Part shown: positions 21,544 through 34,088 of the stretch, piece after piece
Layout of the letters: the number at the start of each line of letters is the position of its first letter
How positions within the stretch are numbered: the stretch's first letter is position 1
Origin: an uncultured bacterium
Lineage (GTDB): Bacteria; Krumholzibacteriota; Krumholzibacteriia; LZORAL124-64-63
Length of the DNA: 64,000 bases
Reading direction: 5' to 3'
Assembly (NCBI GenBank): GCA_963727525.1
Contig: CAVSGO010000008.1
Coordinates: 32,001-96,000, forward strand
Notes under the pieces: generated by a model
Seen by the model: the letters and a program-made list of their open reading frames with translations, nothing else
Database searches by the model: none
Told to the model about the DNA's origin: nothing
Position numbers and translations under genes: made by a program

Positions 21544-21728
21544 GGTAACCTCCGTATGCTCGTGTTCGCACAGGTCCGCCAGGGGCCGGAGGCTGTGCGT
21601 CATGTGTGTCTACGCTTATGACAGCTATCTGGCGGAAATAGTCACAATCATTTGCCTAAAGCGCCACAACGTTTTTTTTCCGTGACCGTGATACGGTGCG
21701 TGGTGTCCAAGGGACGAAGGAGACGGAC

Positions 21729-22304
21729 GTGAGTGCGCCAACCGACGACGAACTCGTGCAACGGGCGCAAGCGAACGCCGGGCACGATCTGCGGCCATTC
21801 GAGGAACTCATGCGCCGTCACCAGGCCAAGGTGATGGCAAATTGCCGCTATCTCAGCGGTAGCGCGGATGATGCTCAGGATCTGGCGCAGGAGGTCTTCG
21901 TCAAGGCGTACTTCGGATTGCGCCGCTTCCGGCAGGATGCGGCGTTCGGCACGTGGATCCAGCGCATCAAGGTGAACCACTGTTTGAATTTCTTACGAAA
22001 GAAGAAGGACCGGAAATTCGTGGACGCGGATGATCCCGCCATGGAAGTGGAGCTACCTCTGCAGGTCACGCCACGGGCCCACGAGACTCTCCAGGCTGCG
22101 GATCGGCAGCGTCTCATCGCGGCGGCGCTCGAGCGCGTGCCCGAGACGCTCCGCGTGGCCCTGGTCATGGCGGATCTCGACGAGTTGCCCTATCAGGAGA
22201 TCGCCGACCGCCTCGCCGTGGGGTTGTCGGCAGTGAAAATGCGAATCAAACGCGGTCGGGAGGAATTCCGGCGCATCTATGCCGAGCTGTCGGCGAGGCA
22301 GTGA
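21729..22304 (+). CDS. ECF sigma-70 factor
   Basis: AQDLAQEVFVKAY, TWIQRI..NHCLN, YQEIA..L..VKMRIKRGR. Confidence 0.92.
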   Translation: MSAPTDDELVQRAQANAGHDLRPFEELMRRHQAKVMANCRYLSGSADDAQDLAQEVFVKAYFGLRRFRQDAAFGTWIQRIKVNHCLNFLRKKKDRKFVDADDPAMEVELPLQVTPRAHETLQAADRQRLIAAALERVPETLRVALVMADLDELPYQEIADRLAVGLSAVKMRIKRGREEFRRIYAELSARQ

Positions 22305-22333
22305 TGGTGAGCAGGACCGTGGGGAGGTGACGC

Positions 22334-22585
22334 ATGACCGAGGATCATACACCAGGAGCCGATGATGACGTCGACGTGGGCACACCTGTCGTCGAGCTGA
22401 GAGAGTTGCTCGTCATGCCGCCGACCGCGCTGCTCACCAAGGTCCGTGGGAGCATCCATCGCCGTCTGTTCACGGCCGACTCCGTCGATTTCGGTCTCCG
22501 AGGATTCTTCGAGGTCTTCATGGCCTACCTGGATGTCCTGTTCGGGGCTTGCCGCGGCAAGTCCGCCCCCAAGGAGGGACGCTGA
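22334..22585 (+). CDS. Small hypothetical protein (anti-sigma-like position)
   Basis: GGAGG RBS; stop overlaps next start (TGATG). Confidence 0.6.
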   Translation: MTEDHTPGADDDVDVGTPVVELRELLVMPPTALLTKVRGSIHRRLFTADSVDFGLRGFFEVFMAYLDVLFGACRGKSAPKEGR

Positions 22586-23406
22586 TGGAAAGCTCGTTCG
22601 ACATCGTCGGTGCAGCGCGCAGCGTCCTGCAGGATCTCGTGACGGCATTCGTCGACTTCGTGCCCCGCTTCGTGACGGCCGTGATCGTGATCATCCTGGG
22701 CCTCGTGGTCGCGAAGATCGCCGAGCGCACGATCAAGGTCGTGGCCGAGCGCATGAAGTTCGACACCGGCCTGGAGCGGCTCGGCATCACCCTGGCGCTG
22801 CGCCGGGTGGGGCTCACGGGCTCGCCGGCCCGCCTCGTGGCGCGCACGGTCTACCTGCTCCTGGTCATCCTCTTCACGCAGACCGTATGCCGGGCCGTGG
22901 GACTGGAGGTCGTCGCCGAGGCCATCGCGTCGTTCTTCCATTACCTCCCGAACCTGGTCGCAGCTTTCCTCGTCCTGTTGCTGGGCATGATCTTCGCGCA
23001 GTTCCTCGCGCGCACCGTGGCCGTATCGGCCGAGGACGCGGGGATCGACTACGGACCGCTGCTCGGGCGCGCGGTCTCGACGCTGGTCATGTTCGTCGTC
23101 GTGGTCATGGCCCTCGGCCAGCTACGGATCGACACGCAGATCATTCGCCTGGTCGTCCTGGTCATGCTGTCGGGCGCGGCGATCGCGATGGCCCTGAGCT
23201 TCGGCCTGGGCTCGCGGGACATCACCCGCAATCTCGTCGCGGGATTCTACGTGCGGCGATTCGTGCGTGAGGGCGAGATGCTGGAGATCGATTCCGTGAG
23301 CGGCGTGGTCGTGGGGGTCACGCCGTTGCAGACACTCGTCGAGCAAGAGGGACGTACGCTGGCGATCCCGAACCAGGTGTTTCTGGACAAGGTCGCCCGA
23401 CATTGA
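22585..23406 (+). CDS. MscS-related TM-helix-repeat membrane protein
   Basis: FVPRFVTAVI, YLPNLVAA, LSFGLGSRDITRNLVAG, IPN. Confidence 0.8.
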   Translation: MESSFDIVGAARSVLQDLVTAFVDFVPRFVTAVIVIILGLVVAKIAERTIKVVAERMKFDTGLERLGITLALRRVGLTGSPARLVARTVYLLLVILFTQTVCRAVGLEVVAEAIASFFHYLPNLVAAFLVLLLGMIFAQFLARTVAVSAEDAGIDYGPLLGRAVSTLVMFVVVVMALGQLRIDTQIIRLVVLVMLSGAAIAMALSFGLGSRDITRNLVAGFYVRRFVREGEMLEIDSVSGVVVGVTPLQTLVEQEGRTLAIPNQVFLDKVARH

Positions 23407-23468
23407 TGGTTGCGGAATCGGCGTGACGATATGACCCTGGAACCTCGCGCCACGGAAGGAGAGACGTC

Positions 23469-24302
23469 GTGAATCTCGACCCGAATCAGCTCAAGAACGG
23501 ACTGGGATCGCTCTGGGCTTACTTGCAGGTCTACGGGCTGAAGGTCCTGGGCGCCTTCGTCATCCTCATCGTCGGGCGGCTCGTGGCCGGCAGCGTGCGC
23601 CGCTCGGTCGCGGCCGTCGGCGTACGCCGCAACTGGGATCCTGGACTCATCGGTTTCGTCGGCAGCCTGGCCTATTTCTTCGTCATGGCCTTCACGCTGG
23701 TGGCGGTGCTGGGCAGCTTCGGCGTGCAGACCGCATCGCTCGTGGCCGTGCTGGGCGCGGCGAGCTTTGCCGTGGGCCTCGCGCTGCAGGGAAGCCTCTC
23801 GAATTTCGCCGCTGGCGTGATGCTGATGATCTTCCGCCCCTTCAAGGTGGGCGACTACATCGACGCGGCGGGCGTGGCCGGCAGCGTCAAGGAGATCGGG
23901 ATCTTCAGCACGACGCTGGCGACGCCGGACAACGTGCTCATCACGGTTCCCAACAGCAAGCTCTATGGTGACACCATCAAGAACTACGCGGGTTACACGA
24001 CCCGTCGCATCGACTTGACCATCGGCATCAGCTACAAGGACGACATCGGCCAGGCGATCGCCGCCATCGACGAGGTTGTCCGAAGCGATGCCCGGGTGCT
24101 GGCGGAACCGGCACCAATGATCGCGGTGGGCGCCCTGGGCGCCTCGAGCGTCGACCTCGTGGTGCGGCCATGGGTCAACGTCCCCGACTACTGGGATGTC
24201 CGTTTCGCGCTCACCCGGCAGATCAAGGAGAGCCTCGACGCTGCCGGGATCGAGATTCCATTCCCGCAAACCGTCGTCACGATGATTCAACCCGAACATT
24301 GA
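23469..24302 (+). CDS. mscS: Small-conductance mechanosensitive channel
   Basis: GLALQGSLSNFAAG, RPFKVGDYI, IEIPFPQ. Confidence 0.93.
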   Translation: MNLDPNQLKNGLGSLWAYLQVYGLKVLGAFVILIVGRLVAGSVRRSVAAVGVRRNWDPGLIGFVGSLAYFFVMAFTLVAVLGSFGVQTASLVAVLGAASFAVGLALQGSLSNFAAGVMLMIFRPFKVGDYIDAAGVAGSVKEIGIFSTTLATPDNVLITVPNSKLYGDTIKNYAGYTTRRIDLTIGISYKDDIGQAIAAIDEVVRSDARVLAEPAPMIAVGALGASSVDLVVRPWVNVPDYWDVRFALTRQIKESLDAAGIEIPFPQTVVTMIQPEH

Positions 24303-24388
24303 CCGTCGCCCGGAACCACCGTCGACCAGTGGTTCCGCCCAAACACACCGCGGGCGATCGGGCGACGGTACGTCGAAAGGACTCGTCC

Positions 24389-25429
24389 ATGAAGATCCTG
24401 CGAAGGATGATCGCGCTCTCGCTCTCGCTGGCGTCGCTTACGCTGTTCCTGGCCCCGGCGGTGGCGCGCGCCGAAGAGGACGCCCCACCGCCGCCCATCG
24501 GCGAGTGGCAGCGCGAGGCCAAGCTCGGCGTGAACCTCCTGCAGAGCTACTATACGCGGAACTGGAACGGGGCCGACAAGGGCTCGATCGTGTGGGCCGC
24601 CAACTTCGACTACCTCGCCCAGAACCAGCTCACCGAGAAGTGGAACTGGCGCAACACGCTGAACCTCGCCTTCGGCCAGACGCACCAGCAGGATCGCGAC
24701 GCCAACGGCGAACTCGTGTGGCGCAAGCCCGACAAGACCACGGACCTGATCCAGTTCGAATCGCTTTTCCGCTACTCGCTCGATGGCTGGGACCCGTACC
24801 TCAGCCTGGACTTCGAGAGCCAGTTCCAGGACCAGACCGACGCTTCTGACCGCTCGATCGCGTTCAACCCGATGAAATTCACCGAGGCGGTCGGTATCTC
24901 GCGTATGCTCATCAATCAGGGCGATCGGCAGCTCATGAGCCGGGTCGGATTCGCGATGCACGAGAATAGCCGCAAGTTCTTCCTCAGCGCGCCGCCCGAC
25001 AACGCGAAGAAGAGCTACAGCTCCACCGACGGCGGCGCCGAGCTGATCTTCGAGTACAAGGACAAGATCCTGGAAGATCGCGTCGAGTACGCCAGCAAGC
25101 TCGGTCTCTACCAGCCATTCTTCTACAGCGGCAAGTCGGATCTCCAGGATCTGAGCGACGCCGACCTGACGACGGCCGGTCTGCCGACGGATGTGGCCGA
25201 CTACACCGTCGCCCTCGACGCCGACTGGGAGAACACCTTCGTCACCCACATCACCAAGGTCATCAACGTGCAGCTCTACCTGCGCTGGATGTATGACAAG
25301 TACGACAACACGGTGAAGCCTGCGGTCGAGAACGGCACCATCGTCAACGGTGCGGCCGTGAAGTCGGCGATCCGCAAGGCCGGACAGTTCAAGCAGACGA
25401 TGAGCATCGGGCTGGCGTACACGTTCTAG
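24389..25429 (+). CDS. DUF3078-like outer-membrane beta-barrel protein
   Basis: Signal peptide; Q.YY..NW.G, W.N.LNLAFG, K..DLI, terminal GLAYTF. Confidence 0.7.
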   Translation: MKILRRMIALSLSLASLTLFLAPAVARAEEDAPPPPIGEWQREAKLGVNLLQSYYTRNWNGADKGSIVWAANFDYLAQNQLTEKWNWRNTLNLAFGQTHQQDRDANGELVWRKPDKTTDLIQFESLFRYSLDGWDPYLSLDFESQFQDQTDASDRSIAFNPMKFTEAVGISRMLINQGDRQLMSRVGFAMHENSRKFFLSAPPDNAKKSYSSTDGGAELIFEYKDKILEDRVEYASKLGLYQPFFYSGKSDLQDLSDADLTTAGLPTDVADYTVALDADWENTFVTHITKVINVQLYLRWMYDKYDNTVKPAVENGTIVNGAAVKSAIRKAGQFKQTMSIGLAYTF

Positions 25430-25452
25430 TGTCCGGCCACGTAGCCATACGC

Positions 25453-25486
25453 AGCGGGTCTCCGACCAGTCCGGGGGCCCGCTTTT
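25453..25486 (+). terminator. Rho-independent terminator
   Basis: agcgggtctccg...cgggggcccgct followed by T run. Confidence 0.65.
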
Positions 25487-25573
25487 CGTTGACGCCGGGC
25501 CGCCCAGCCGCTAACTTCGCCGAGTTGATTGCGTCTATCCGTTCCCATATCGCAGAAGGCTGGAGGTCCAGGA

Positions 25574-26281
25574 ATGCGGGTGGCCAGTAGTGAGCGTTCC
25601 CGTGTCAGAGTGTGCCCCTCGCTGATCATATCGCTTCTCGTGGTTCTGCTCGCGACGACCGCCCTGGCCCGCTCGGCGCCAGATCCTAGCGATGCGCGGG
25701 TCTTTCTCGGCACCTGGATCTTCGATATGGGATACCAGGTGGACAGTCTGAACGACATCGGCGGCCCCACGCACTTCTTTTCCAGCCGTTTCCAGAACTA
25801 TGCCGGCGGGCGCATCGTCGGCCACTCGGGCACGAAACGCGGCCGCCGGATCTGGCTGGGCAAGTTCGGCGGTCTCGCGTGGACGCAAAGCAAGTTCAAG
25901 CTCGACTGGGAAGTGCCCGACGTGATGTCGCTCGACCCGCTGAAGGCCTCCCTCCTCAGCTTCGCGTTCCCGATCGGGATGGAGCTCAACCTCGCTCTGG
26001 GAAAGGTGCTGCACATCGCACCCTACGCCTCGGTGACGTGGCTGTACCAGAACATGAAGGTGACGATCAGCGACAAGGATTTTCACGGCAGCGTGAGCAA
26101 GCTCGCGCTCACCGCCGGCGCCGAAGCCTCTGTGAACCTCGGGAAATTCCTTGTCACCGCCGGCGCGGGCCGTGTGCAGGTCGTGGGCAAGGATGTCGAT
26201 TTCGATGTCGATGACGTGACGTTCACCGGCCGGTACACATCGCACTCTACGGAGTATTTCGCGGGGGTGACGCTGCGATGA
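25574..26281 (+). CDS. Putative outer-membrane beta-barrel protein
   Basis: Signal-like hydrophobic stretch; amphipathic strands; ends YFAGVTLR; GGAGG RBS. Confidence 0.55.
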   Translation: MRVASSERSRVRVCPSLIISLLVVLLATTALARSAPDPSDARVFLGTWIFDMGYQVDSLNDIGGPTHFFSSRFQNYAGGRIVGHSGTKRGRRIWLGKFGGLAWTQSKFKLDWEVPDVMSLDPLKASLLSFAFPIGMELNLALGKVLHIAPYASVTWLYQNMKVTISDKDFHGSVSKLALTAGAEASVNLGKFLVTAGAGRVQVVGKDVDFDVDDVTFTGRYTSHSTEYFAGVTLR

Positions 26282-26670
26282 AGATCTGGCGGACAGACTC
26301 GTGGTTCGGACTCTGCGCCGTCGCGTGTGTCGTACTCGGCCTGGGAGGCTGCGCCCCACTCCCTCTCGGCAACGATGCGCCCGATCTGCCGGTGATCAGC
26401 TCCACCGGAGTCCTCATACCCAGCTACGGCGTCCCGGTGGACGTGACCGTGGTCGACCCCGACGGTGACCGTGTCGCGGTGCAGTTCCGCGTCTTTTCCG
26501 GACCCACGCCCTCGGATTCGAACTGGACCGTCTACGTGGACAGCGGCACGACGAACACGTTCTACCTCAACCTCGCAGCCGGATCCTACACGCTCCAGGT
26601 CCGCGCCCGCGACGAGCTCGACGAGACGTCGGGCTATGCGGAGATGCCCCTGGTCGTCACGACGAAATGA
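26278..26670 (+). CDS. Lipoprotein with Ig-like/PKD-like domain
   Basis: LGGC lipobox; DPDGD.V..., GSYTLQVRARD. Confidence 0.7.
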   Translation: MKIWRTDSWFGLCAVACVVLGLGGCAPLPLGNDAPDLPVISSTGVLIPSYGVPVDVTVVDPDGDRVAVQFRVFSGPTPSDSNWTVYVDSGTTNTFYLNLAAGSYTLQVRARDELDETSGYAEMPLVVTTK

Positions 26671-26777
26671 CCGCATCCGCTCCGGGCTAAGGCCTTCCCG
26701 CCTCCGTGCCGACAATCGAGACCAGGACTGCCCCGCACGGGACGAGGTCAGCGTGCGTGCGGTCGAGGAGGTTGCGC

Positions 26778-27650
26778 ATGGAAACGCTGCCGACGCATGA
26801 GTGCCGGATCGCGGTGGGCGAGGTCGTCCTCTCGCTGGCGTGCCCGACGGCTGCCTACGCGGCATCGATGCGCGAGTACTTCGTCACCGGCGTCACGGCG
26901 GCGCCGCCCGACGTGCGGCTGCGTCTGGAATTGATCGAGGACACACCCCAGCGACCCGTGCCGAACTCGCTGGTGGCGACGAAGCGCCTCGCCGACGGCG
27001 GATTCGCCATCGCGGACGATCTCGTCACCGGCGCCTACGATGCCGCCGGCGGCGAGGGTTGGCTGCGCGTGCAGTGGTACCTCACGAAGGCACAGCTCAC
27101 GCGGGTCTTCGAACAGATACTCTACCAGGCATTCTATTCCGCCCGTGCACGGCGCGGCTACGACGCCATGCTGCTGCACGCGAGCGCGGTGATCCGCGAC
27201 GGCGACGGTTTCCTCTTCGTCGGGGCGTCGGGCCGCGGCAAGTCGACAGTCGCCGATTTGAGCCGCTCCTGCACCGTCCTCAATGACGAAGTGGCGCTGG
27301 TGGAGTTCACGCCGGCGGGTCCGGAGTTGCGCAGTACGCCGTTCAACGGCCTCTACCGCGACAAGCATGCGGGCCAGGCGCCGCTGCGGGCCGTGTTCCT
27401 GCTCGCCCATGGTCGCGACCATCACCTCGAGGCCGTGAGCGCGGGTGCGGCGGTAGCAGAGATCACCGCGCAGGTGATCGCACCCGTCGCGCTCGAGGAC
27501 ACCCTGAATCCCCGGACGAGTCAGCTCATGCTCGACGCGGCCAGCCATCTCGTCGGCGCGGCGCCGGTGCGGCGGCTCGTCTTCACCCCGGACGCCGGTT
27601 TCTGGCAGGCCATCGACGGAGCCTTCCCGCCGGCAGGAGGTCTCTCGTGA
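26778..27650 (+). CDS. HPr-kinase-related P-loop protein (RiPP-cluster associated)
   Basis: LLHASAV, GASGRGKST, LNDE, STPF, LRAVFLL. Confidence 0.8.
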   Translation: METLPTHECRIAVGEVVLSLACPTAAYAASMREYFVTGVTAAPPDVRLRLELIEDTPQRPVPNSLVATKRLADGGFAIADDLVTGAYDAAGGEGWLRVQWYLTKAQLTRVFEQILYQAFYSARARRGYDAMLLHASAVIRDGDGFLFVGASGRGKSTVADLSRSCTVLNDEVALVEFTPAGPELRSTPFNGLYRDKHAGQAPLRAVFLLAHGRDHHLEAVSAGAAVAEITAQVIAPVALEDTLNPRTSQLMLDAASHLVGAAPVRRLVFTPDAGFWQAIDGAFPPAGGLS

Positions 27651-27928
27651 TCCAGCTCTCGACCATCGCGCACAGGAACGAGGAGTTCTGCGAGCGCACA
27701 CTCGGCGACGAGACGATCTTCCTCTCGCCCGACGGTCAGCAGGTGCACGCGCTCAACGCCGTGGGCACGGACATCTGGGCCATGATCGACGGCAGCGCCA
27801 CGTTCGCCGAGATCCGCGACCGCATCTGCGTCGAGTACGACGTGCCCAGCGACCGCGCCGAGCGCGATCTCCTGGCATTCGCGAACGAGCTGGCCACCAA
27901 GCACCTCCTGATCCTGGAGTCGGCATGA
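27647..27928 (+). CDS. PqqD family RiPP recognition element
   Basis: LNAVGTDIWAMIDG..T..EI...I..EYDV...AERDL..F..EL. Confidence 0.92.
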   Translation: MIQLSTIAHRNEEFCERTLGDETIFLSPDGQQVHALNAVGTDIWAMIDGSATFAEIRDRICVEYDVPSDRAERDLLAFANELATKHLLILESA

Positions 27929-28947
27929 CCGGTCTGCGCGACGAGATCTTTGGGCGCTACGCCGCCGAGAACCGGCTCCACGCGGCGATGATCGAGCTGA
28001 CGCATCGCTGCCCCTGCGATTGCCAGCATTGCTTCCTCGTGCGCGACGGCCGCGACGAGCTGACGACCGCCGAGGTGCTCGACCTGCTCGATCAGCTTCG
28101 CGAGGAGGGCGCCTTCAACCTGGGGCTCACCGGTGGCGAGCCGTTCCTGCGGCGCGACCTGCCGGAGATCCTCGCGCGCGCCCACACGCATCGCTTCTTC
28201 GTGTCCATCCTCACGACGGCGCTCACGATCGGCCCGGCGGAAGTGGCGATGCTCCAGGAGCACCGGGTGCAGCGGCTGGAGGTGTCGCTGCTGGGGGCCA
28301 CGGCTGCCACCCATGACGCGATCATGCGGCGTCCGGGAGCGTTCGCGCGCACGCTGCAAGCCGTGTCCCTGCTCGTGGCCGGCGGCCTCGACGTGCGGCT
28401 GAAGACCACCGTGCTGCGCCCCAACCGCCACGAACTGCCGGCGATCCGCGAACTGGCGCGCGGTCTGGGGGCGCACTACGAGGCCAATATCGTGGTGTCG
28501 CCCCGCATCGATGGCGACCGCGAACCCCTCGACCTCGCGCTCACGCAGGCCGAACTGGTCGACATCGATCCGTCGTTTCTCAATGCCGGGCCGATCCCGG
28601 GCGAGGATCCGTCGGCTGGAGCTGTCCTCGTCTGCAAGGCCGGCCGCACGGTGGCGGCGATCGGGCCGCGCGGCGAGGTGTATCCGTGTCTGCTCTTTCG
28701 CCGGCCGGTGGGCAACCTCCGGGAGCGATCGCTGCGCGGGATCCTGCACGATGCGCCCGATCCGTTCCTGACGGAGCTACGCGCGCTCGAACCGGCGGAC
28801 ATCACGGGTTGCCGGACCTGCGCGCTGCAGGCGCGTTGCCAGCGTTGTCCGGGCATCACGTACCTGGAAACGGGGGATGTGCGGCGGGCGTCGCCGTCGG
28901 CGTGCGCCCTCGCCGAGGGCTTGCATCAGCTCCAGAAAAACGACTGA
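27925..28947 (+). CDS. Radical SAM/SPASM peptide maturase
   Basis: CPCDCQHC (Cx3Cx2C), TGGEP; SPASM CKAG...GEVYPC...CRTC..C..CPG..C. Confidence 0.92.
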   Translation: MTGLRDEIFGRYAAENRLHAAMIELTHRCPCDCQHCFLVRDGRDELTTAEVLDLLDQLREEGAFNLGLTGGEPFLRRDLPEILARAHTHRFFVSILTTALTIGPAEVAMLQEHRVQRLEVSLLGATAATHDAIMRRPGAFARTLQAVSLLVAGGLDVRLKTTVLRPNRHELPAIRELARGLGAHYEANIVVSPRIDGDREPLDLALTQAELVDIDPSFLNAGPIPGEDPSAGAVLVCKAGRTVAAIGPRGEVYPCLLFRRPVGNLRERSLRGILHDAPDPFLTELRALEPADITGCRTCALQARCQRCPGITYLETGDVRRASPSACALAEGLHQLQKND

Positions 28948-28972
28948 CCCCTTCGCGCGAGGGGGTCAGTCG
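28941..28972. terminator. Long bidirectional hairpin between rSAM gene and convergent precursor gene
   Basis: cgactgaccccttcg-cg-cgagggggtcagtcg. Confidence 0.75.
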
Positions 28973-28994
28973 ATCTCTGATTCGTGCGTCGAGC

Positions 28995-29153
28995 CTAGCT
29001 GCAGCACCAGTGGAAGAGCGGATTCAGGAAGTGGATGGGCGTGCAACCCCCACCACCGCCACCCTCGCTACTGCCGTAGTCGCCGTATACGCCGGCCTCG
29101 ATGCCCTCGGTACGGATCTGCGGCTCCGCATACACTTTCTTGGTCGTGTCCAT
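28995..29153 (-). CDS. Putative RiPP precursor peptide, 52 aa
   Basis: Manually translated MDTTKKVYAEPQIRTEGIEAGVYGDYGSSEGGGGGGCTPIHFLNPLFHWCCS; AGAGG RBS; YxxPxI leader motif. Confidence 0.8.
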   Translation of the reverse strand: MDTTKKVYAEPQIRTEGIEAGVYGDYGSSEGGGGGGCTPIHFLNPLFHWCCS

Positions 29154-29395: not shown

Positions 29396-30133
29396 ATGGC
29401 GCCGACCAAGACGACGACCTGGCCCGCGATCGTGCTCGCCGTGGCGATCTGCGGGTGCTCGGACACGGTGTCGCCGGAACGTCCGGGGTCGACCACCACA
29501 CCTCCGGCGGATCTCTCCACGTGGGAGCAGGAGATCGACTCGCATGGGGGCGCCGTCTACTACCTCGACCCCCACGGGGGATCGCTTGCCAACCCGGGTA
29601 CCCGCGAGGCGCCGCGGCCAGGACTGGCCGAGGTCCTGGACGCCGATCTCATCCAGCGCTGGGAACCTGTCGACCACCCCTAAGAGGAGGGTGCTCCGCC
29701 GCACCTCGTGAATCCGGACGCGCCGGTCGCGCCGGGCGACAACCTGCGCCTGCTGAGCGGTGACCACGGGGTGTGCACGATCATGGACGCCCACGAACCC
29801 GACTACATCGCGATCACGGCGGACGAGGGTGCGACGCCGGTGCTTCAGCGTCTGGCCCTGATCGGAGCCGAGCGTTTCGTGATCGCGGGGCCGACTGTGC
29901 GCGGCGAGGCGGGCGGCGATCTCGGCGGTACGCTGGTCGATCTCACGACCCACGGCTGGCGCGGCCCGTGCCGCTACGTGGTCGTGCGCGATTGCCTCGT
30001 CACGAGCGGCGACCACTTCGCCATTCGCGACAACGTCCTGCGCAACGTCGACTTCGGGGTCTCGGTGTCGGGCGACGTGGCGGTGGTCGACCACAACCTG
30101 GAGACCGTCGATCTCGGCGCCTTCGAGCGCTGA
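29396..30133 (+). pseudogene. Disrupted lipoprotein (parallel beta-helix-like) with in-frame TAA at 29681-29683 and probable internal deletion
   Basis: ICGC lipobox; VYYLDPHGGS..NPGT..P; frame continues after TAA (EEGAPPHLVNP..PGDNLRLLSGDHG); ends DLGAFER. Confidence 0.6.
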
Positions 30134-30237
30134 GCGTATTCGCTCCTTGCCGCCTGGCCATGATGGCGCCATCTTCTGGCGGCCGGATGCGTGCCCGCCG
30201 CGCCGCAACATCGTCATGCTTCCCGGAGGATCGATCC

Positions 30238-31296
30238 GTGCCCGAACTCGCATTCCCATTCCGCCGCAGCCTCGTCACCGGTGGCGCCGGCTTCCTCGGC
30301 ATCAACCTCGTGCGCTACCTGCTCGAACGCGGCCACGAGGTCGTGTCGCTGGACATCGCGCCGTTCGACTACCCCGAGCGCGACCGCATCACCGAGGTCA
30401 CCGGCGATATCCGTGACCGCGCCGCTGTCGACCGTGCCATCGCCGACTGCGATCTCGTGGTGCACTGCGCGGCCGCCCTGCCGCTGTACAAGCCAGCGGA
30501 GATCCTCTCCACCGACATCGACGGCACGCGCACCGTGCTGGAGTCGGCGCTCGCCCACGGCGTGGCGCGCGCCGTGCATGTGTCGAGCACGGCCGTGTAC
30601 GGGATCCCGGACCATCATCCGTTGCTCGAGGACGACCGGCTGCACGGCGTCGGTCCGTACGGCGAGGCCAAGGTGAAAGCCGAGCAGGTGTGCGCCGACT
30701 TCCGGTCGCGCGGCATGACCGTGCCGATCATCCGTCCCAAGTCGTTCATCGGGCCCGAGCGCCTGGGCGTGTTCGCGCTCTTCTACGACTGGGCCAAGGA
30801 CGGCCACGGCTTCCCCATGATCGGCAGCGGGGACAATCGCTACCAGCTCTGCGACGTGGAGGACGTGTGTCAGGGTATCTACCTGGCCGCCACCGGACCG
30901 GCCGACAAGGTCGACGATGTCTTCAACATCGGCGCCGCCGAGTTCACCACGATGAAGCAGGACTACCAGGCGGTGCTCGACGACGCCGGTTTCGGCAAGA
31001 CGATCAAGGGCTTCCCGGCCGCCCCCGTGATCGGGACGCTGCGCCTCCTCGAAGCGTGCAAGCTCTCGCCGCTCTACAAGTGGGTGTACGAGACGGCAGC
31101 CGAGGATTCGTTCGTCTCCATCGAGAAGGCGCAGCGCGTGCTCGGCTTCGCACCGCGATATTCCAACAAGGATGCGCTGGTGCGCAACTACCGCTGGTAT
31201 CTCGAGCACGAGAAGGATTTCGTGGGCGCGTCGGGCGTGTCGCATCGCGTGCCCTGGAAGCAAGGGATCCTACGGTTCGCGAAGGTCTTCTTCTAG
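30238..31296 (+). CDS. NAD-dependent epimerase/dehydratase (extended SDR)
   Basis: VTGGAGFLG, SSTAVYG, YGEAK. Confidence 0.92.
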   Translation: MPELAFPFRRSLVTGGAGFLGINLVRYLLERGHEVVSLDIAPFDYPERDRITEVTGDIRDRAAVDRAIADCDLVVHCAAALPLYKPAEILSTDIDGTRTVLESALAHGVARAVHVSSTAVYGIPDHHPLLEDDRLHGVGPYGEAKVKAEQVCADFRSRGMTVPIIRPKSFIGPERLGVFALFYDWAKDGHGFPMIGSGDNRYQLCDVEDVCQGIYLAATGPADKVDDVFNIGAAEFTTMKQDYQAVLDDAGFGKTIKGFPAAPVIGTLRLLEACKLSPLYKWVYETAAEDSFVSIEKAQRVLGFAPRYSNKDALVRNYRWYLEHEKDFVGASGVSHRVPWKQGILRFAKVFF

Positions 31297-31314
31297 CGTG
31301 CCTCGATGTCCATG

Positions 31315-31347
31315 AAGAGGGCCGGGACCAGGAGTCTCGGCCCTCTT
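31315..31347. terminator. Bidirectional hairpin
   Basis: aagagggccgggac-cagga-gtctcggccctctt. Confidence 0.7.
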
Positions 31348-31396
31348 GCCGTGGTTGCGCCGGCCTCAGCCGCCGGACGCCCGTAGCGCTTCGCGC

Positions 31397-31954
31397 CTAC
31401 TGTGCCTGCAACCGTTGTACCAGATCCTCGAGATCGCCGTCGTCGGAGTTCAGCGCGAGGCCGGCGATGGCGGCCAGATCGATGTCGCCCACGAGGTTGG
31501 CGAAGGTGGCGTCGCTGTCGTCGAGCACCATCACCATCCAGCCGGCGACACCCTTGTCGTCGCGCTGCGTGCTGACGGACACCAGCTCCTCCTTGCCCTG
31601 CACGTAGACCAGGCGCTGCCAGCCGTCTTTCTCCAGCGACTTCGCGATCTTGTCGAAATACCCACGTACGCGTGTGGCCTGCTCGGGCGGGAAGGCGAAC
31701 GACTTCACGTGCACGGCCTGGATGCGCGCGATGATCTGCGCCAGGGCGTCGTTGTCGGACGCTTCCTTCTTCACGACGTCGGCGAGCATGTCCGGACCGA
31801 GATCCACGAGGCGCACCTCCGTGGCGTCGTCGGGCACCTCGATCGCGCTCAGATCCACGTAGCCAGGCAGCCGGCTGGTGTCGTTCTTGGCGCTGGCGCT
31901 CACGGCCAGGGTGAGCAGCAGCACCATGATGGGGATTGTCCGCAGCGTCTTCAT
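31397..31954 (-). CDS. DUF4252-like secreted protein
   Basis: Signal peptide; PGYVDL, L..DGW..LV, FANLVGDIDL. Confidence 0.75.
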   Translation of the reverse strand: MKTLRTIPIMVLLLTLAVSASAKNDTSRLPGYVDLSAIEVPDDATEVRLVDLGPDMLADVVKKEASDNDALAQIIARIQAVHVKSFAFPPEQATRVRGYFDKIAKSLEKDGWQRLVYVQGKEELVSVSTQRDDKGVAGWMVMVLDDSDATFANLVGDIDLAAIAGLALNSDDGDLEDLVQRLQAQ

Positions 31955-32385
31955 CCTTCGCCTCCTCGCGACGGGGTCGCGTTCATGTCCAGGGACTTTC
32001 TGAGTGTGCGCGGCAGGCGACTGCCGAGCACGTCGGAAATGGTGGTCTTCTCGGCCACTGCGATGGCCTCGGCGGTGAGCAGGACGGCGGTGCGCGCCTG
32101 CTCGCTCGCGCGGGCGATCTCGGCGTCGCTGTGGCCGGGCGTGGCGGTCCGCGACCACGGCGACCACACGGCCAGAGCCGCGGCGACGGCCAGGACCGCG
32201 GCGATCTCGGACACGCGTGGCCACGTTCGCAATTCCGGCCACGGAAGCACCCGGCGCGGCGCCGTCCGGTCGGTGATGGCCATGAGGCGACGCCGCTGGG
32301 CCGCGGAGAGGTCGTGCCGAGGCAAGCGGCCCAGCGCTTCGCATAGGGTACGCTCGGTGACGAGGTCGTCGTCGTGACGTGTCAT
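31951..32385 (-). CDS. Putative single-TM anti-sigma factor
   Basis: Coupled to ECF gene; one TM helix (IAAVLAVAAALAVW). Confidence 0.6.
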   Translation of the reverse strand: MTRHDDDLVTERTLCEALGRLPRHDLSAAQRRRLMAITDRTAPRRVLPWPELRTWPRVSEIAAVLAVAAALAVWSPWSRTATPGHSDAEIARASEQARTAVLLTAEAIAVAEKTTISDVLGSRLPRTLRKSLDMNATPSRGGEG

Positions 32386-32939
32386 CCGGCCACTCGTTTC
32401 TGCGCGATCGGTTCGTCGCCACCGGGTGCCAGGAGGGGGCGTAGCGCCTTGCGCGCCCGGTGGATGCGTACCTTGATCGTGCTCTCGGGAACCTGCAGGA
32501 CGTCGGCGATCTCCCGCATCGTCAAACCCTGGTAGTAGTGCATGAGCACGACGCTCCGGCTGGCGGCCGGCAGCGTGTCGATGGCGGCCAGCACGGTGTG
32601 CTGCTGCTCGTCGAGCTGCACCTGGCGGTCGGGACCATCACCGGCCCCGGTCGCGCTCGCCAGGTTCGCCAGGTCGTCGCCGCCGACCACGTGCAGGTGC
32701 GCCCGCAGCGTCTTCAGCCGCCGCAGACGGTCGATGCACAGGTTGTGCGTCACGCGCATCAGCCACGCCGAGGCGCCGGCCAGATCATCGGCCGGACACT
32801 GCCGCCAGGCACGCAAAGAGGCTTCCTGCATCACGTCCTCGGCCTCGTGCCGATCCTGCAGCAGGTAGCAGGCGTGGCTGAACACGCGGTCGCCGGCGTG
32901 GTCGATGAGTGCGGTGAATGCCTTGCGGGACATGCTCAT
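32382..32939 (-). CDS. ECF sigma-70 factor
   Basis: AEDVMQEA, WLMRVTHNLCIDRLR, EIADVL..PESTIKVRIHRAR. Confidence 0.92.
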   Translation of the reverse strand: MSMSRKAFTALIDHAGDRVFSHACYLLQDRHEAEDVMQEASLRAWRQCPADDLAGASAWLMRVTHNLCIDRLRRLKTLRAHLHVVGGDDLANLASATGAGDGPDRQVQLDEQQHTVLAAIDTLPAASRSVVLMHYYQGLTMREIADVLQVPESTIKVRIHRARKALRPLLAPGGDEPIAQKRVAG

Positions 32940-33089
32940 GGCCACTCAACGCGCCAGCGGGTGCGAGGGTTACATGCCCCGTGAAGGGTCTTGGTGTGAA
33001 TAACCATTTTCATCTGTCACGCCCGGGGGACCCAATACGTAACCTCGGTTGTCCGCATTTTGAATGGTTTATCTGGATAGGAGGCAATC

Positions 33090-34088
33090 ATGCAGACAGG
33101 TGCGACGCGACGGACGGGATGTCTCGTGGACAGCATGGCTGGACGCGGGGCGTTGATGTTCGTGGCAGTGGTTCTCGTGGCGGCGATGGGCGTATCCACG
33201 GCACAGGCCGAGATCAACACGATGCTCACCCTGCACTTCACGAACCTCGCCACCCTCGATGAGGGCGTGGAGGGGCACTACGAGGGCTGGGCCATCGTGG
33301 GAGGCATGCCGATTTCCACCGGCGTCTTCAATGTCAATGCCATGGGGCAGCCCGTGGAACTGGGCGGCGGCCCGGTGATCAACGAGTTCATGACGGGCAT
33401 GGATCTGTCCATGGCAACCGCGATCAAGATCACGATCGAGCCGGCCGGCGACGCTGACCCGGCGCCGTCGGGTCTGGTGATCGTGGGCGGACCCGTGTCC
33501 GGCATGGATGCGGCGCTCACCACCGGTCTGGAATCGGTGGATGCCGCGACCTGCGCCTACTTTCTGGCCACGCCGAGCGACAACCCCGACATGCCGGACA
33601 ATAACGACCACGGCATCTGGTTCCTCACGATGCCCGGTCCCGAGCCCGGCTTCATGAACCTGCCCGACATCGGCCCCAACTGGACCTACGAGGGCTGGGT
33701 CGTGGACATCTCCGGCAGCTCGCCAGTGCCGTACTCGACCGGCAAGTTCTCCATGGCCACCGGTGCCGACAGCGACGCGGCCGGTCCCATGGGCGGCGGC
33801 CCACCGTTCCCCGGCCAGGACTTCGTGGCGTTCCAGGGCGGCCCCGTGCTCGACCTGGATACGGGCGACTTTGCGGCAGTGATCACCGTCGAACCGGTGC
33901 CGGACAACCTGCCGTCCCCGTTCCAGCTCAAGCCCTTCGCCGGGATGATCCCGACGGACGCCCTGGGCATGAACAACATGGTCGGCAACCAGACCGACGC
34001 CACCTTCCCCACCGGCGATGCGACCCTCAACAACGAGGTGCCCGTCGAGCAGGCTAACTGGGGCAGCGTGAAGGCGCTGTATCGCTGA
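33090..34088 (+). CDS. Secreted protein with two YEGW repeats and C-terminal WGSVKALYR tail
   Basis: AGGAGG RBS; signal peptide; HYEGW..STGVF and TYEGW..STGKF; GPPFPGQDF. Confidence 0.75.
   Translation: MQTGATRRTGCLVDSMAGRGALMFVAVVLVAAMGVSTAQAEINTMLTLHFTNLATLDEGVEGHYEGWAIVGGMPISTGVFNVNAMGQPVELGGGPVINEFMTGMDLSMATAIKITIEPAGDADPAPSGLVIVGGPVSGMDAALTTGLESVDAATCAYFLATPSDNPDMPDNNDHGIWFLTMPGPEPGFMNLPDIGPNWTYEGWVVDISGSSPVPYSTGKFSMATGADSDAAGPMGGGPPFPGQDFVAFQGGPVLDLDTGDFAAVITVEPVPDNLPSPFQLKPFAGMIPTDALGMNNMVGNQTDATFPTGDATLNNEVPVEQANWGSVKALYR

Follow-up and report, generated by a model that had tools for sequence, protein, structure and literature searches.

What does a radical S-adenosylmethionine (SAM) enzyme act on when its gene is translationally coupled to genes for an HprK-like kinase and a PqqD-type protein, and what might the three proteins make together? 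This question is raised by a cassette on a 64-kb stretch of DNA (G000:C8:32001-96000; 'the window' hereafter means this whole stretch) from an uncultured member of the Krumholzibacteriia, whose own genome (G000, 4.66 Mb) is 96.7% complete. An earlier note, made from the DNA letters by themselves, had proposed that the cassette is an uncharacterised system for a ribosomally made peptide with post-translational modifications (RiPP), with an unannotated precursor gene that converges on the radical SAM gene. We find that the cassette represents a module of the type that makes linear polyphosphorylated peptides (LPPs), here joined to a radical SAM enzyme and equipped with an undescribed family of precursors whose core carries a Cys-Cys pair and whose leader belongs to a wider, shared leader superfamily. 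The overlapping genes for the kinase, the RiPP recognition element (RRE) and the radical SAM/SPASM enzyme, the hairpin that follows them and the open reading frame (ORF) for a 52-amino-acid peptide on the minus strand all lie where the note had placed them, and its peptide sequence was exact. The four genes are, in window coordinates:

26778..27650, plus strand: kinase-like ORF with the P-loop of the HprK/phosphoenolpyruvate carboxykinase (PEPCK) fold, resembling LppK and ScmC; 290 amino acids from an ATG
27647..27928, plus strand: discrete PqqD-type RRE; 93 amino acids, overlapping the kinase stop by 4 bases
27925..28947, plus strand: radical SAM/SPASM maturase; 340 amino acids, overlapping the PqqD stop by 4 bases
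28995..29153, minus strand: precursor peptide ORF; 52 amino acids, convergent to the radical SAM gene

The case for the precursor is carried by its conservation beside the radical SAM gene. When the radical SAM protein was used as a query against 61 related genomes, five orthologues were recovered at 50-59% identity. When a single genome from each GTDB species was scanned for sequence patterns, 10 radical SAM loci emerged; nine show 49-59% identity, and the remaining one, in an Elusimicrobiota metagenome-assembled genome (MAG), shows 31%. This GTDB-wide scan employed two short patterns, and members may therefore have been missed. After duplicates were merged, the set comprised 10 orthologous loci besides the window, and counts over these related genomes are not independent of one another. 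Within the phylum, the enzyme is encoded by 10 of 208 genomes (G000 counted), all of which belong to one family (9 of its 90 other genomes) and which represent 7 of 81 genera. A homologous peptide gene lies directly downstream of the radical SAM gene and convergent to it in nine of the 10 orthologous loci, and in the tenth (L033/L054) the contig stops 33 bases past the radical SAM gene. The peptides encoded by these loci show 43-58% amino-acid identity, with indels that are in frame.

Homologues of the peptide also exist well outside this set of loci. A public protein collection yielded 45 precursor homologues at E ≤ 0.01 among 85 candidates, all annotated only as 'hypothetical protein', and when 1.84 billion cluster representatives were scanned with a hidden Markov model, 280 matched at E ≤ 0.001, of which 36 reached E ≤ 1e-10. 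The precursor matched no family in NCBIfam or Pfam, and a protein atlas look-up returned unnamed clusters only, all with scores below 0.9. With its position and orientation kept in nine of 10 loci and with its public homologues, the ORF goes well beyond a chance frame and is a real gene. The earlier note had tied its proposal to the peptide being conserved beside homologous radical SAM genes, and the convergent homologue in nine of 10 loci, together with the lack of any curated family, bears out its description of an uncharacterised cassette with an unannotated precursor.

Two further features accompany the precursor gene:

28941..28972, no strand: GC-rich hairpin with a perfect 14-bp stem between the convergent radical SAM and precursor genes, overlapping the radical SAM stop codon
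29242..29271, minus strand: sigma-70-like promoter for the precursor gene, TTGATT-18-TATAAT, 10 of 12 matches; a consensus match only

The hairpin has a folding energy of -29.9 kcal/mol (z = -3.2), and none of 200 shuffled sequences reached equal stability. It carries no T-run and hence was not listed by a consensus terminator scan; nevertheless, it is likely to serve as a two-way terminator. The promoter-like site resides about 90 bases upstream of the precursor ATG within an AT-rich island, and a promoter scan of this upstream region found two sites where 0.4 were expected from shuffles. In addition, the ORF is preceded by a Shine-Dalgarno-like AGAGG. Small ORFs are abundant in sequence with 68% GC (125 of at least 30 amino acids in 12 kb), and so it could be imagined that the 52 codons form a chance open frame and that the radical SAM enzyme acts on some other substrate. 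However, retained position and orientation, 43-58% amino-acid identity with in-frame indels, 36 representatives at E ≤ 1e-10 in the library of 1.84 billion proteins, and the ORF's own promoter-like site and ribosome-binding sequence are what a chance frame would not be expected to show, and this explanation can be regarded as already refuted by the conservation data. That the locus encodes a genuine precursor and its maturation cassette can be held with high confidence.

An alignment of 36 precursors defines the anatomy of the family. Eight positions are invariant (Y8, P11, G21, G24, Y26, P45, C50 and C51), three others (E16, V22 and F47) are conserved at 90% or more, and with few exceptions position 13 carries I, V, L or M. 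The leader follows the pattern K-rich-YxxPx[IV]-[RK]-x-E-x-[IVL]-x-[IV]-G-V-[FY]-G-x-Y-G. A linker of Gly, Asp, Asn and Ser that varies in length and composition occupies the middle of the peptide; it includes Ser or Thr in 32 of the 36 members. The hydrophobic core follows the pattern P-[IVL]-x-hydrophobic-hydrophobic-x-P-[LF]-F-x-hydrophobic-C-C. Within this core, F47 is replaced by Leu or Cys in two of the 36 sequences, and positions 42, 43 and 49 exchange F, L, W, I and M, whereas C50 and C51 never vary. What follows the Cys pair was tabulated for 41 members: 16 have Ser there, 8 have Asn, 15 have a Gly-rich tail and 2 have something else. The copy in the window ends P-x4-CC-S.

These comparisons bear on two statements of the earlier note about the peptide. 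It had recognised YxxPxI as a leader motif of the kind bound by RREs, and both Y8 and P11 proved invariant in the 36 homologues. It had also assigned the Gly6 linker and FHWCCS core to no described class. The Cys pair is indeed conserved, but neither the Gly6 run nor the other residues of FHWCCS, His and Trp among them, are kept across the family, in which the conserved elements are instead GVFGxYG and P-x4-CC.

The leader extends beyond peptides of this core type. Many of the 280 leader-family representatives match in the leader only. When 183 peptides were classified, 80 had the leader and a CC pair near the end, 18 ended in M-E or M-D, 25 had Trp-rich tails, and 60 were placed under 'other', of which many are basic and three are further CC peptides that the leader pattern had missed. 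The leader is thus common to several core types. In addition to the CC type, no fewer than two others can be told apart, one with Trp-rich or basic tails and one with tails that end hydrophobic-H/R-M/L-E/D.

Two orphan peptides with the same leader are encoded in G000 itself. One (L021:9428-9580, on G000:C5) ends H-M-S-M-E and is located directly after an MsbA-like ATP-binding cassette (ABC) exporter gene; the other (L022:9176-9373, on G000:C6) has a His/Gly-rich tail and lies between genes for a hybrid sensor kinase and a DUF4126 protein. Both carry the YxxP...GV[FI]FGxYG leader, and their cores differ from the CC type. A more distant arrangement is found in the Elusimicrobiota MAG (L038:3726-5307), where a PqqD gene is followed by the gene for the 31% identical radical SAM enzyme and then by a co-directional ORF of 47 amino acids, with no kinase at the locus. 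The beginning of this peptide has the K-rich, YxxPxI and SE elements of the precursor leader, and its core is different and contains three Cys residues, so Cys is what this core and the CC cores have in common.

The enzyme encoded beside the precursor is a radical SAM/SPASM protein by its Pfam matches (Radical_SAM, 2.2e-17; SPASM, 1.9e-7). C29, C33 and C36 of the CX3CX2C motif are invariant in six orthologues, as are the seven SPASM cysteines C237, C255, C296, C299, C305, C308 and C327. Because the CX3CX2C motif begins at residue 29, the enzyme has no fused N-terminal RRE. It matched 51 NCBIfam models, none near its cut-off. The closest sequences with solved structures are PqqE (6c8v, 1.7e-23) and SkfB (6efn, 1.3e-22). 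PqqE forms carbon-carbon bonds and uses a discrete PqqD, and SkfB forms thioethers.

The kinase-like protein had no match in local Pfam, and its NCBIfam matches were all below cut-off (ScmC, 2.6e-7; HprK_rel_B, 1.3e-5; HprK_rel_A, 3.1e-5). A GTG at 26706 offers an alternative start that would extend the protein to 314 amino acids; homologues are 285-290 amino acids long. At E ≤ 1e-5 the protein has 138 homologues, one of them attributed to Spirochaeta isovalerica, and the Pfam tag precomputed for this family is PF27840. An AlphaFold (AF2) model built from 60 homologues reached a predicted local distance difference test score (pLDDT) of 95.9 and a predicted template modelling score (pTM) of 0.93. 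Residues 128-290 of the model resemble the catalytic domains of HprK/P (1jb1_A, Z 10.3; 1ko7_B, Z 10.1; root-mean-square deviation 3.1-3.5 Å over about 122 residues), and the whole model resembles PEPCK (1ii2_B, Z 13.5 over 247 residues). The top rows of a Foldseek search with this model held PEPCK only, and HprK/P emerged with a wider aligner. The term 'HprK-like' in the earlier note is therefore right, the predicted fold matching HprK/P with Z about 10. In 60 sequences the N169-D170-E171 motif never varies, nor do G149, G154, K155 and T157 of Walker A, and the protein looks catalytically competent.

The RRE between the kinase and the maturase matches Pfam PqqD at 2.1e-16. Its best NCBIfam match is the PqqD chaperone of lasso peptide systems (NF033536, 3.8e-9), which is below cut-off, as are the chaperone models for SynChlorMet, GeoRSP and PQQ. 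PqqD orthologues stand beside the kinase in eight of the 10 related loci.

Several relatives encode a fuller cluster than the window does. Pfam analysis of flanks revealed a PF14907 nucleotidyltransferase (NTase) gene divergent from the kinase gene in three relatives' loci. A tblastn search of all loci detected the NTase in L025, L026, L027, L033 and L037, and placed an ORF resembling signal peptidase I (SpI) directly upstream of the kinase gene in five loci, L025, L027, L033, L035 and L037. Hence four loci (L025, L027, L033 and L037) have both, L035 has only the peptidase and L026 only the NTase; both are missing next to the cassettes of the window, L024 and L031. In its fuller form the cluster comprises a PF14907 NTase, an archaeal-type SpI, the kinase, the RRE, the radical SAM enzyme and the precursor, and the window carries a trimmed copy of this six-to-seven-gene RiPP cluster of uncultured Krumholzibacteriia.

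Counterparts of the additional genes are present at a second locus of the same genome:

G000:C2 (L049:3852-7683): module without a radical SAM gene, consisting of a divergent NTase gene, an SpI-like ORF, paralogous kinase and PqqD genes and a convergent Exo_endo_phos gene

The NTase of this module belongs to PF14907 (3e-37) and shares 40-43% identity with the cassette-linked NTases versus 30% with the one from a different type of operon. Its SpI-like ORF matches TIGR02228 (4.9e-11) and SipW (4.3e-5), both below cut-off, and its kinase and PqqD are 46% and 47% identical to those of the window. No precursor was seen beside the module. In a kinase tree, the window protein groups with that of L024 from genome G019 (support 88/92), a genome that likewise has a second peptidase-kinase-PqqD locus without a radical SAM gene (L050), and the extra kinase copies of G000:C2 and L050 fall into one and the same clade of 11 members. 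The simplest reading of this tree would be that the kinase-RRE pair was duplicated, and that one copy stayed with the peptidase while the other stayed with the radical SAM and precursor genes.

Related operons of another composition were observed in L051 (G015:C29) and L052 (G020:C14). These encode, in this order, a kinase (33-35% identity), an MsbA-like ABC exporter, a PF14907 transferase, a PqqD protein, a peptide and a PP2C phosphatase; the peptide is about 40-50 amino acids long and has a YxKPV...LGVYGxYG leader. LPP-like systems thus exist in the phylum.

Of the characterised systems, it is the LPP pathway of Bacillota (PMC13381572; Popov et al., Nat Commun 2026) that comes closest, and not that of lasso peptides. 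As described there, the pathway comprises LppA, LppK, LppB, LppS, LppD and LppN, and its precursors have a YxxPxVLxHQxIxFETxxS leader. LppK attaches several phosphates at core Ser3, and LppS cuts after T-1, requires the RRE and handles unphosphorylated precursor poorly; LPPs are called restricted to Bacillota. Apart from the radical SAM enzyme, the fuller cluster of the relatives is the LPP gene set. Both systems have a YxxPx[V/I/L] RRE-binding leader motif, of which Y8 and P11 are the invariant residues in our 36 sequences, and both place an HprK-like kinase gene next to that of a discrete RRE, here with overlap. An MsbA-like exporter also occurs in both, in our genome beside a same-leader peptide (G000:C5). 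The cassette in the window differs in that it adds a radical SAM/SPASM enzyme, and the terms 'radical SAM', 'rSAM' and 'SPASM' are absent from PMC13381572. Further differences are the second leader block (GVFGxYG here versus HQxIxFETxxS), the core (here a short hydrophobic P-x4-CC segment), the host (Krumholzibacteriia versus Bacillota) and the location of the peptidase, transferase and exporter genes, which lie outside the window (G000:C2 and G000:C5) rather than in the cluster as they do for LPPs. The coupled radical SAM gene argues that the product, unlike an LPP, is not merely linear.

The earlier note had instead related the cassette to SynChlorMet and to phosphorylating lasso modules. 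That kinship holds insofar as the same kinds of kinase and PqqD protein are shared, but the LPP pathway is closer and no lasso B2-type domain was found. For phosphorylated lasso peptides (paeninodin with PadeK/ThcoK, pseudomycoidin with PsmK/PsmN), PMC9266682 describes a strictly conserved C-terminal Ser as the kinase target; the systems share an HprK-like kinase, a PqqD-type B1 RRE, a YxxP leader and an accessory nucleotidyltransferase with ours, whereas a C-terminal Ser acceptor is found here in only 16 of 41 family members. PF13471, the B2-type domain, had no match in the 96.7% complete genome, and no lasso cyclase turned up in the Pfam-scanned contexts, although no search was aimed at the cyclase family.

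In SynChlorMet and GeoRSP cassettes, too, a P-loop protein related to HprK occurs with a chaperone of the PqqD family and a radical SAM/SPASM enzyme, and each of the three window proteins matches models of these cassettes. The scores against the SynChlorMet models (TIGR04248-TIGR04251) nonetheless stayed far from their cut-offs (ScmC 30.3 against 125, ScmD 33.2 against 100, ScmE 95.7 against 400, ScmF 67.5 against 400), as did those against GeoRSP (TIGR04302, TIGR04303) and HprK-related kinase B (TIGR04355) (geo_PqqD 31.1 against 100, GeoRSP_rSAM 57.3 against 400, HprK_rel_B 24.5 against 200). The SynChlorMet models name two radical SAM enzymes, whereas the window has one. The PQQ and mycofactocin models were not reached either (PqqE 94.3 against 381, PqqD 27.7 against 46, MftC 95.8 against 265), and indeed no curated NCBIfam model was, whether for SynChlorMet, GeoRSP, PQQ, mycofactocin or sactipeptides. 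Our literature search found no paper on a SynChlorMet or GeoRSP cassette, and none that joins an HPr-type kinase with a radical SAM/SPASM enzyme in a RiPP cluster; it returned overlap only for lasso clusters.

Thioether-forming RiPP systems, that is, those for sactipeptides (subtilosin with AlbA, SKF with SkfB) and ranthipeptides, resemble the cassette in combining a full seven-Cys SPASM domain with a core that has invariant Cys. SkfB is the second-best solved-structure match, and the StsB and AlbA models are among the radical SAM matches, with scores of 98.8 against a cut-off of 625 and 62.6 against 850. In sactipeptide and ranthipeptide enzymes the RRE is usually fused, whereas that of the window is discrete; here, in addition, there are only two adjacent Cys residues near the C-terminus, and a kinase gene is coupled to the operon.

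Taken together, these comparisons make it reasonably probable that the PqqD protein binds the leader, the radical SAM enzyme cross-links the core, the kinase phosphorylates the linker, and a peptidase and an exporter act in trans. The chemistry and the binding steps are modelled on the LPP and lasso precedents and on conservation, and the genes, folds, layout and conservation were observed. By analogy with both precedents, the PqqD protein would bind the YxxPx[IV] motif and present the peptide to its partner enzymes. The radical SAM/SPASM enzyme would then modify the short hydrophobic core, the most likely product having one or two thioethers that link Cys50 and Cys51 with residues upstream of them in the P-[LF]-F-x-hydrophobic segment. 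The kinase might (poly)phosphorylate Ser or Thr where the Gly/Asp/Ser linker follows the GVFGxYG block, much as LppK acts on core Ser3. The signal-peptidase-like enzyme encoded on G000:C2 could remove the leader in trans, and an MsbA-like ABC exporter encoded elsewhere in the genome could export the product.

A number of observations weigh against parts of this scheme. A firm call on the chemistry is opposed by the NCBIfam results, in which the top scores of the radical SAM enzyme are those of the heme-pathway proteins AhbD and NirJ, all far below cut-off, and by the equal sequence distance of the enzyme from carbon-carbon-forming PqqE and thioether-forming SkfB. A fixed phosphorylation site is opposed by the absence of any universal acceptor downstream of the leader in the 36 or 41 members compared, and four of the 36 peptides have no Ser or Thr between leader and core. 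We considered the C-terminal Ser, by the lasso model, as a general site and rejected it, since it is present in 16 of 41 members only. Processing and export in trans is an assumption, given that Pfam analysis of the window proteins detected no peptidase, exporter or transferase. Finally, two genomes of genus g26, G025 (L028, C20) and G134 (L055, C120), keep the radical SAM gene and an intact precursor gene with no adjacent kinase or PqqD gene. In G025, which is 97% complete, topoisomerase VI genes abut the radical SAM gene, and neither a kinase match nor a PF05402 match was found genome-wide, which speaks against the kinase and the RRE being essential. The radical SAM enzyme can presumably act without them. 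The smallest unit that is conserved is accordingly the radical SAM-peptide pair, with the kinase and RRE being accessory in G025 and G134.

Competing explanations differ on which bond the maturase forms. Cross-linking through Cys seems about evenly poised between right and wrong on the sequence comparisons, and a thioether from C50 or C51 is favoured because the Cys pair and P45 are the sole invariant positions of the core while every aromatic position varies, and because the Elusimicrobiota relative retains the YxxPxI leader and a core that bears Cys and is otherwise different. The enzyme might instead forge carbon-carbon or ether cross-links on core aromatics, in cyclophane-type or PqqE/StrB-type fashion, in which case the Cys pair would be for metal binding, a disulfide or later tailoring. 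Such chemistry would suit a core rich in Phe, Trp, His and Leu, and PqqE, which likewise operates with a discrete PqqD, is the best solved-structure match by sequence. However, no aromatic position is invariant in the 36 sequences whereas C50 and C51 never vary, and it is Cys and not the aromatic pattern that the Elusimicrobiota peptide keeps; we consider aromatic cross-linking unlikely. Another alternative would be a peptide-derived redox cofactor that, like PQQ or mycofactocin, remains inside the cell. Such a role would fit the combination of a small peptide with a discrete PqqD protein and a radical SAM/SPASM enzyme, and also the lack of a protease or transporter gene in the window. This alternative is nevertheless very improbable: the PqqE, PqqD and MftC models score far below cut-off, the spread is patchy (10 of 208 phylum genomes, all of one family), no partner dehydrogenases were seen in the Pfam-scanned contexts, a signal-peptidase-type leader peptidase occurs in the relatives' clusters, and an exporter is found with same-leader peptides.

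The role of the kinase is similarly contested. Phosphorylation of the precursor, suggested by analogy, has in our estimate an equal chance of being correct or not. The protein might rather be a scaffold or an ATP-dependent helper of the RRE, or might serve other peptides with the same leader, so that the product would be cross-linked only. The two genomes that retain the radical SAM and precursor genes without kinase or RRE genes fit this explanation, as do the missing universal Ser or Thr after the leader and the presence in G000 of a second kinase/RRE pair and two orphan same-leader peptides. It has to contend, though, with the translational coupling of the kinase gene to the RRE and radical SAM genes, with its retention in eight of 10 loci and with nucleotide-binding and N-D-E motifs that are invariant in 60 homologues. 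Moreover, characterised relatives of the module phosphorylate their precursors (PMC13381572, PMC9266682). A kinase that leaves the precursor unmodified is therefore a possibility to be taken seriously, albeit a doubtful one, and we continue to prefer the scheme in which the linker is phosphorylated and the core is cross-linked.

The genes on either side of the cassette look unrelated to it. On the upstream side (21696-26670) are genes for an extracytoplasmic function (ECF)-type sigma factor, two MscS-like channels, outer-membrane proteins of the DUF3078 and beta-barrel kinds and one small lipoprotein. On the downstream side (29396-34088) are two coupled lipoprotein-like ORFs, an NAD-dependent epimerase gene and a DUF4252/ECF sigma pair. 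The adjacent lipoprotein gene (29396-30133) has an in-frame stop, and its interpretation as a pseudogene was discarded, as the TAA is followed by GAGGAGG and a GTG start, which makes two ordinary coupled genes.

Characterisation of the kinase, RRE and signal peptidase toolkit dates only from 2026 and has been limited to Bacillota and to linear peptides (PMC13381572). Here the toolkit works alongside a coupled radical SAM/SPASM gene, and the host belongs to a candidate phylum from which hardly any natural products are known. Cassettes of the HprK-like, PqqD and radical SAM type have been catalogued but little explored, and the substrate is now defined as a compact precursor family with two invariant cysteines, and the natural variants that lack the kinase and the RRE provide a built-in test of how each modification depends on its gene. 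More speculatively, and with less confidence than we attach to the scheme above, the locus may belong to a RiPP class of hybrid nature: the linker would be polyphosphorylated by an LPP-type module, the hydrophobic P-x4-CC tail would be cross-linked by the radical SAM enzyme, and a shared leader would feed at least three unrelated core types (CC-ended, Trp-rich or basic, and hydrophobic-H-M-E-ended) to different sets of enzymes. If this tentative proposal is true, the product would be amphiphilic, with phosphates making its head anionic and with its hydrophobic end held rigid; uncultured bacteria would have YxxPxI...GVFGxYG in common as a 'pan-class' leader; and the reach of the LPP machinery would go well past Bacillota.

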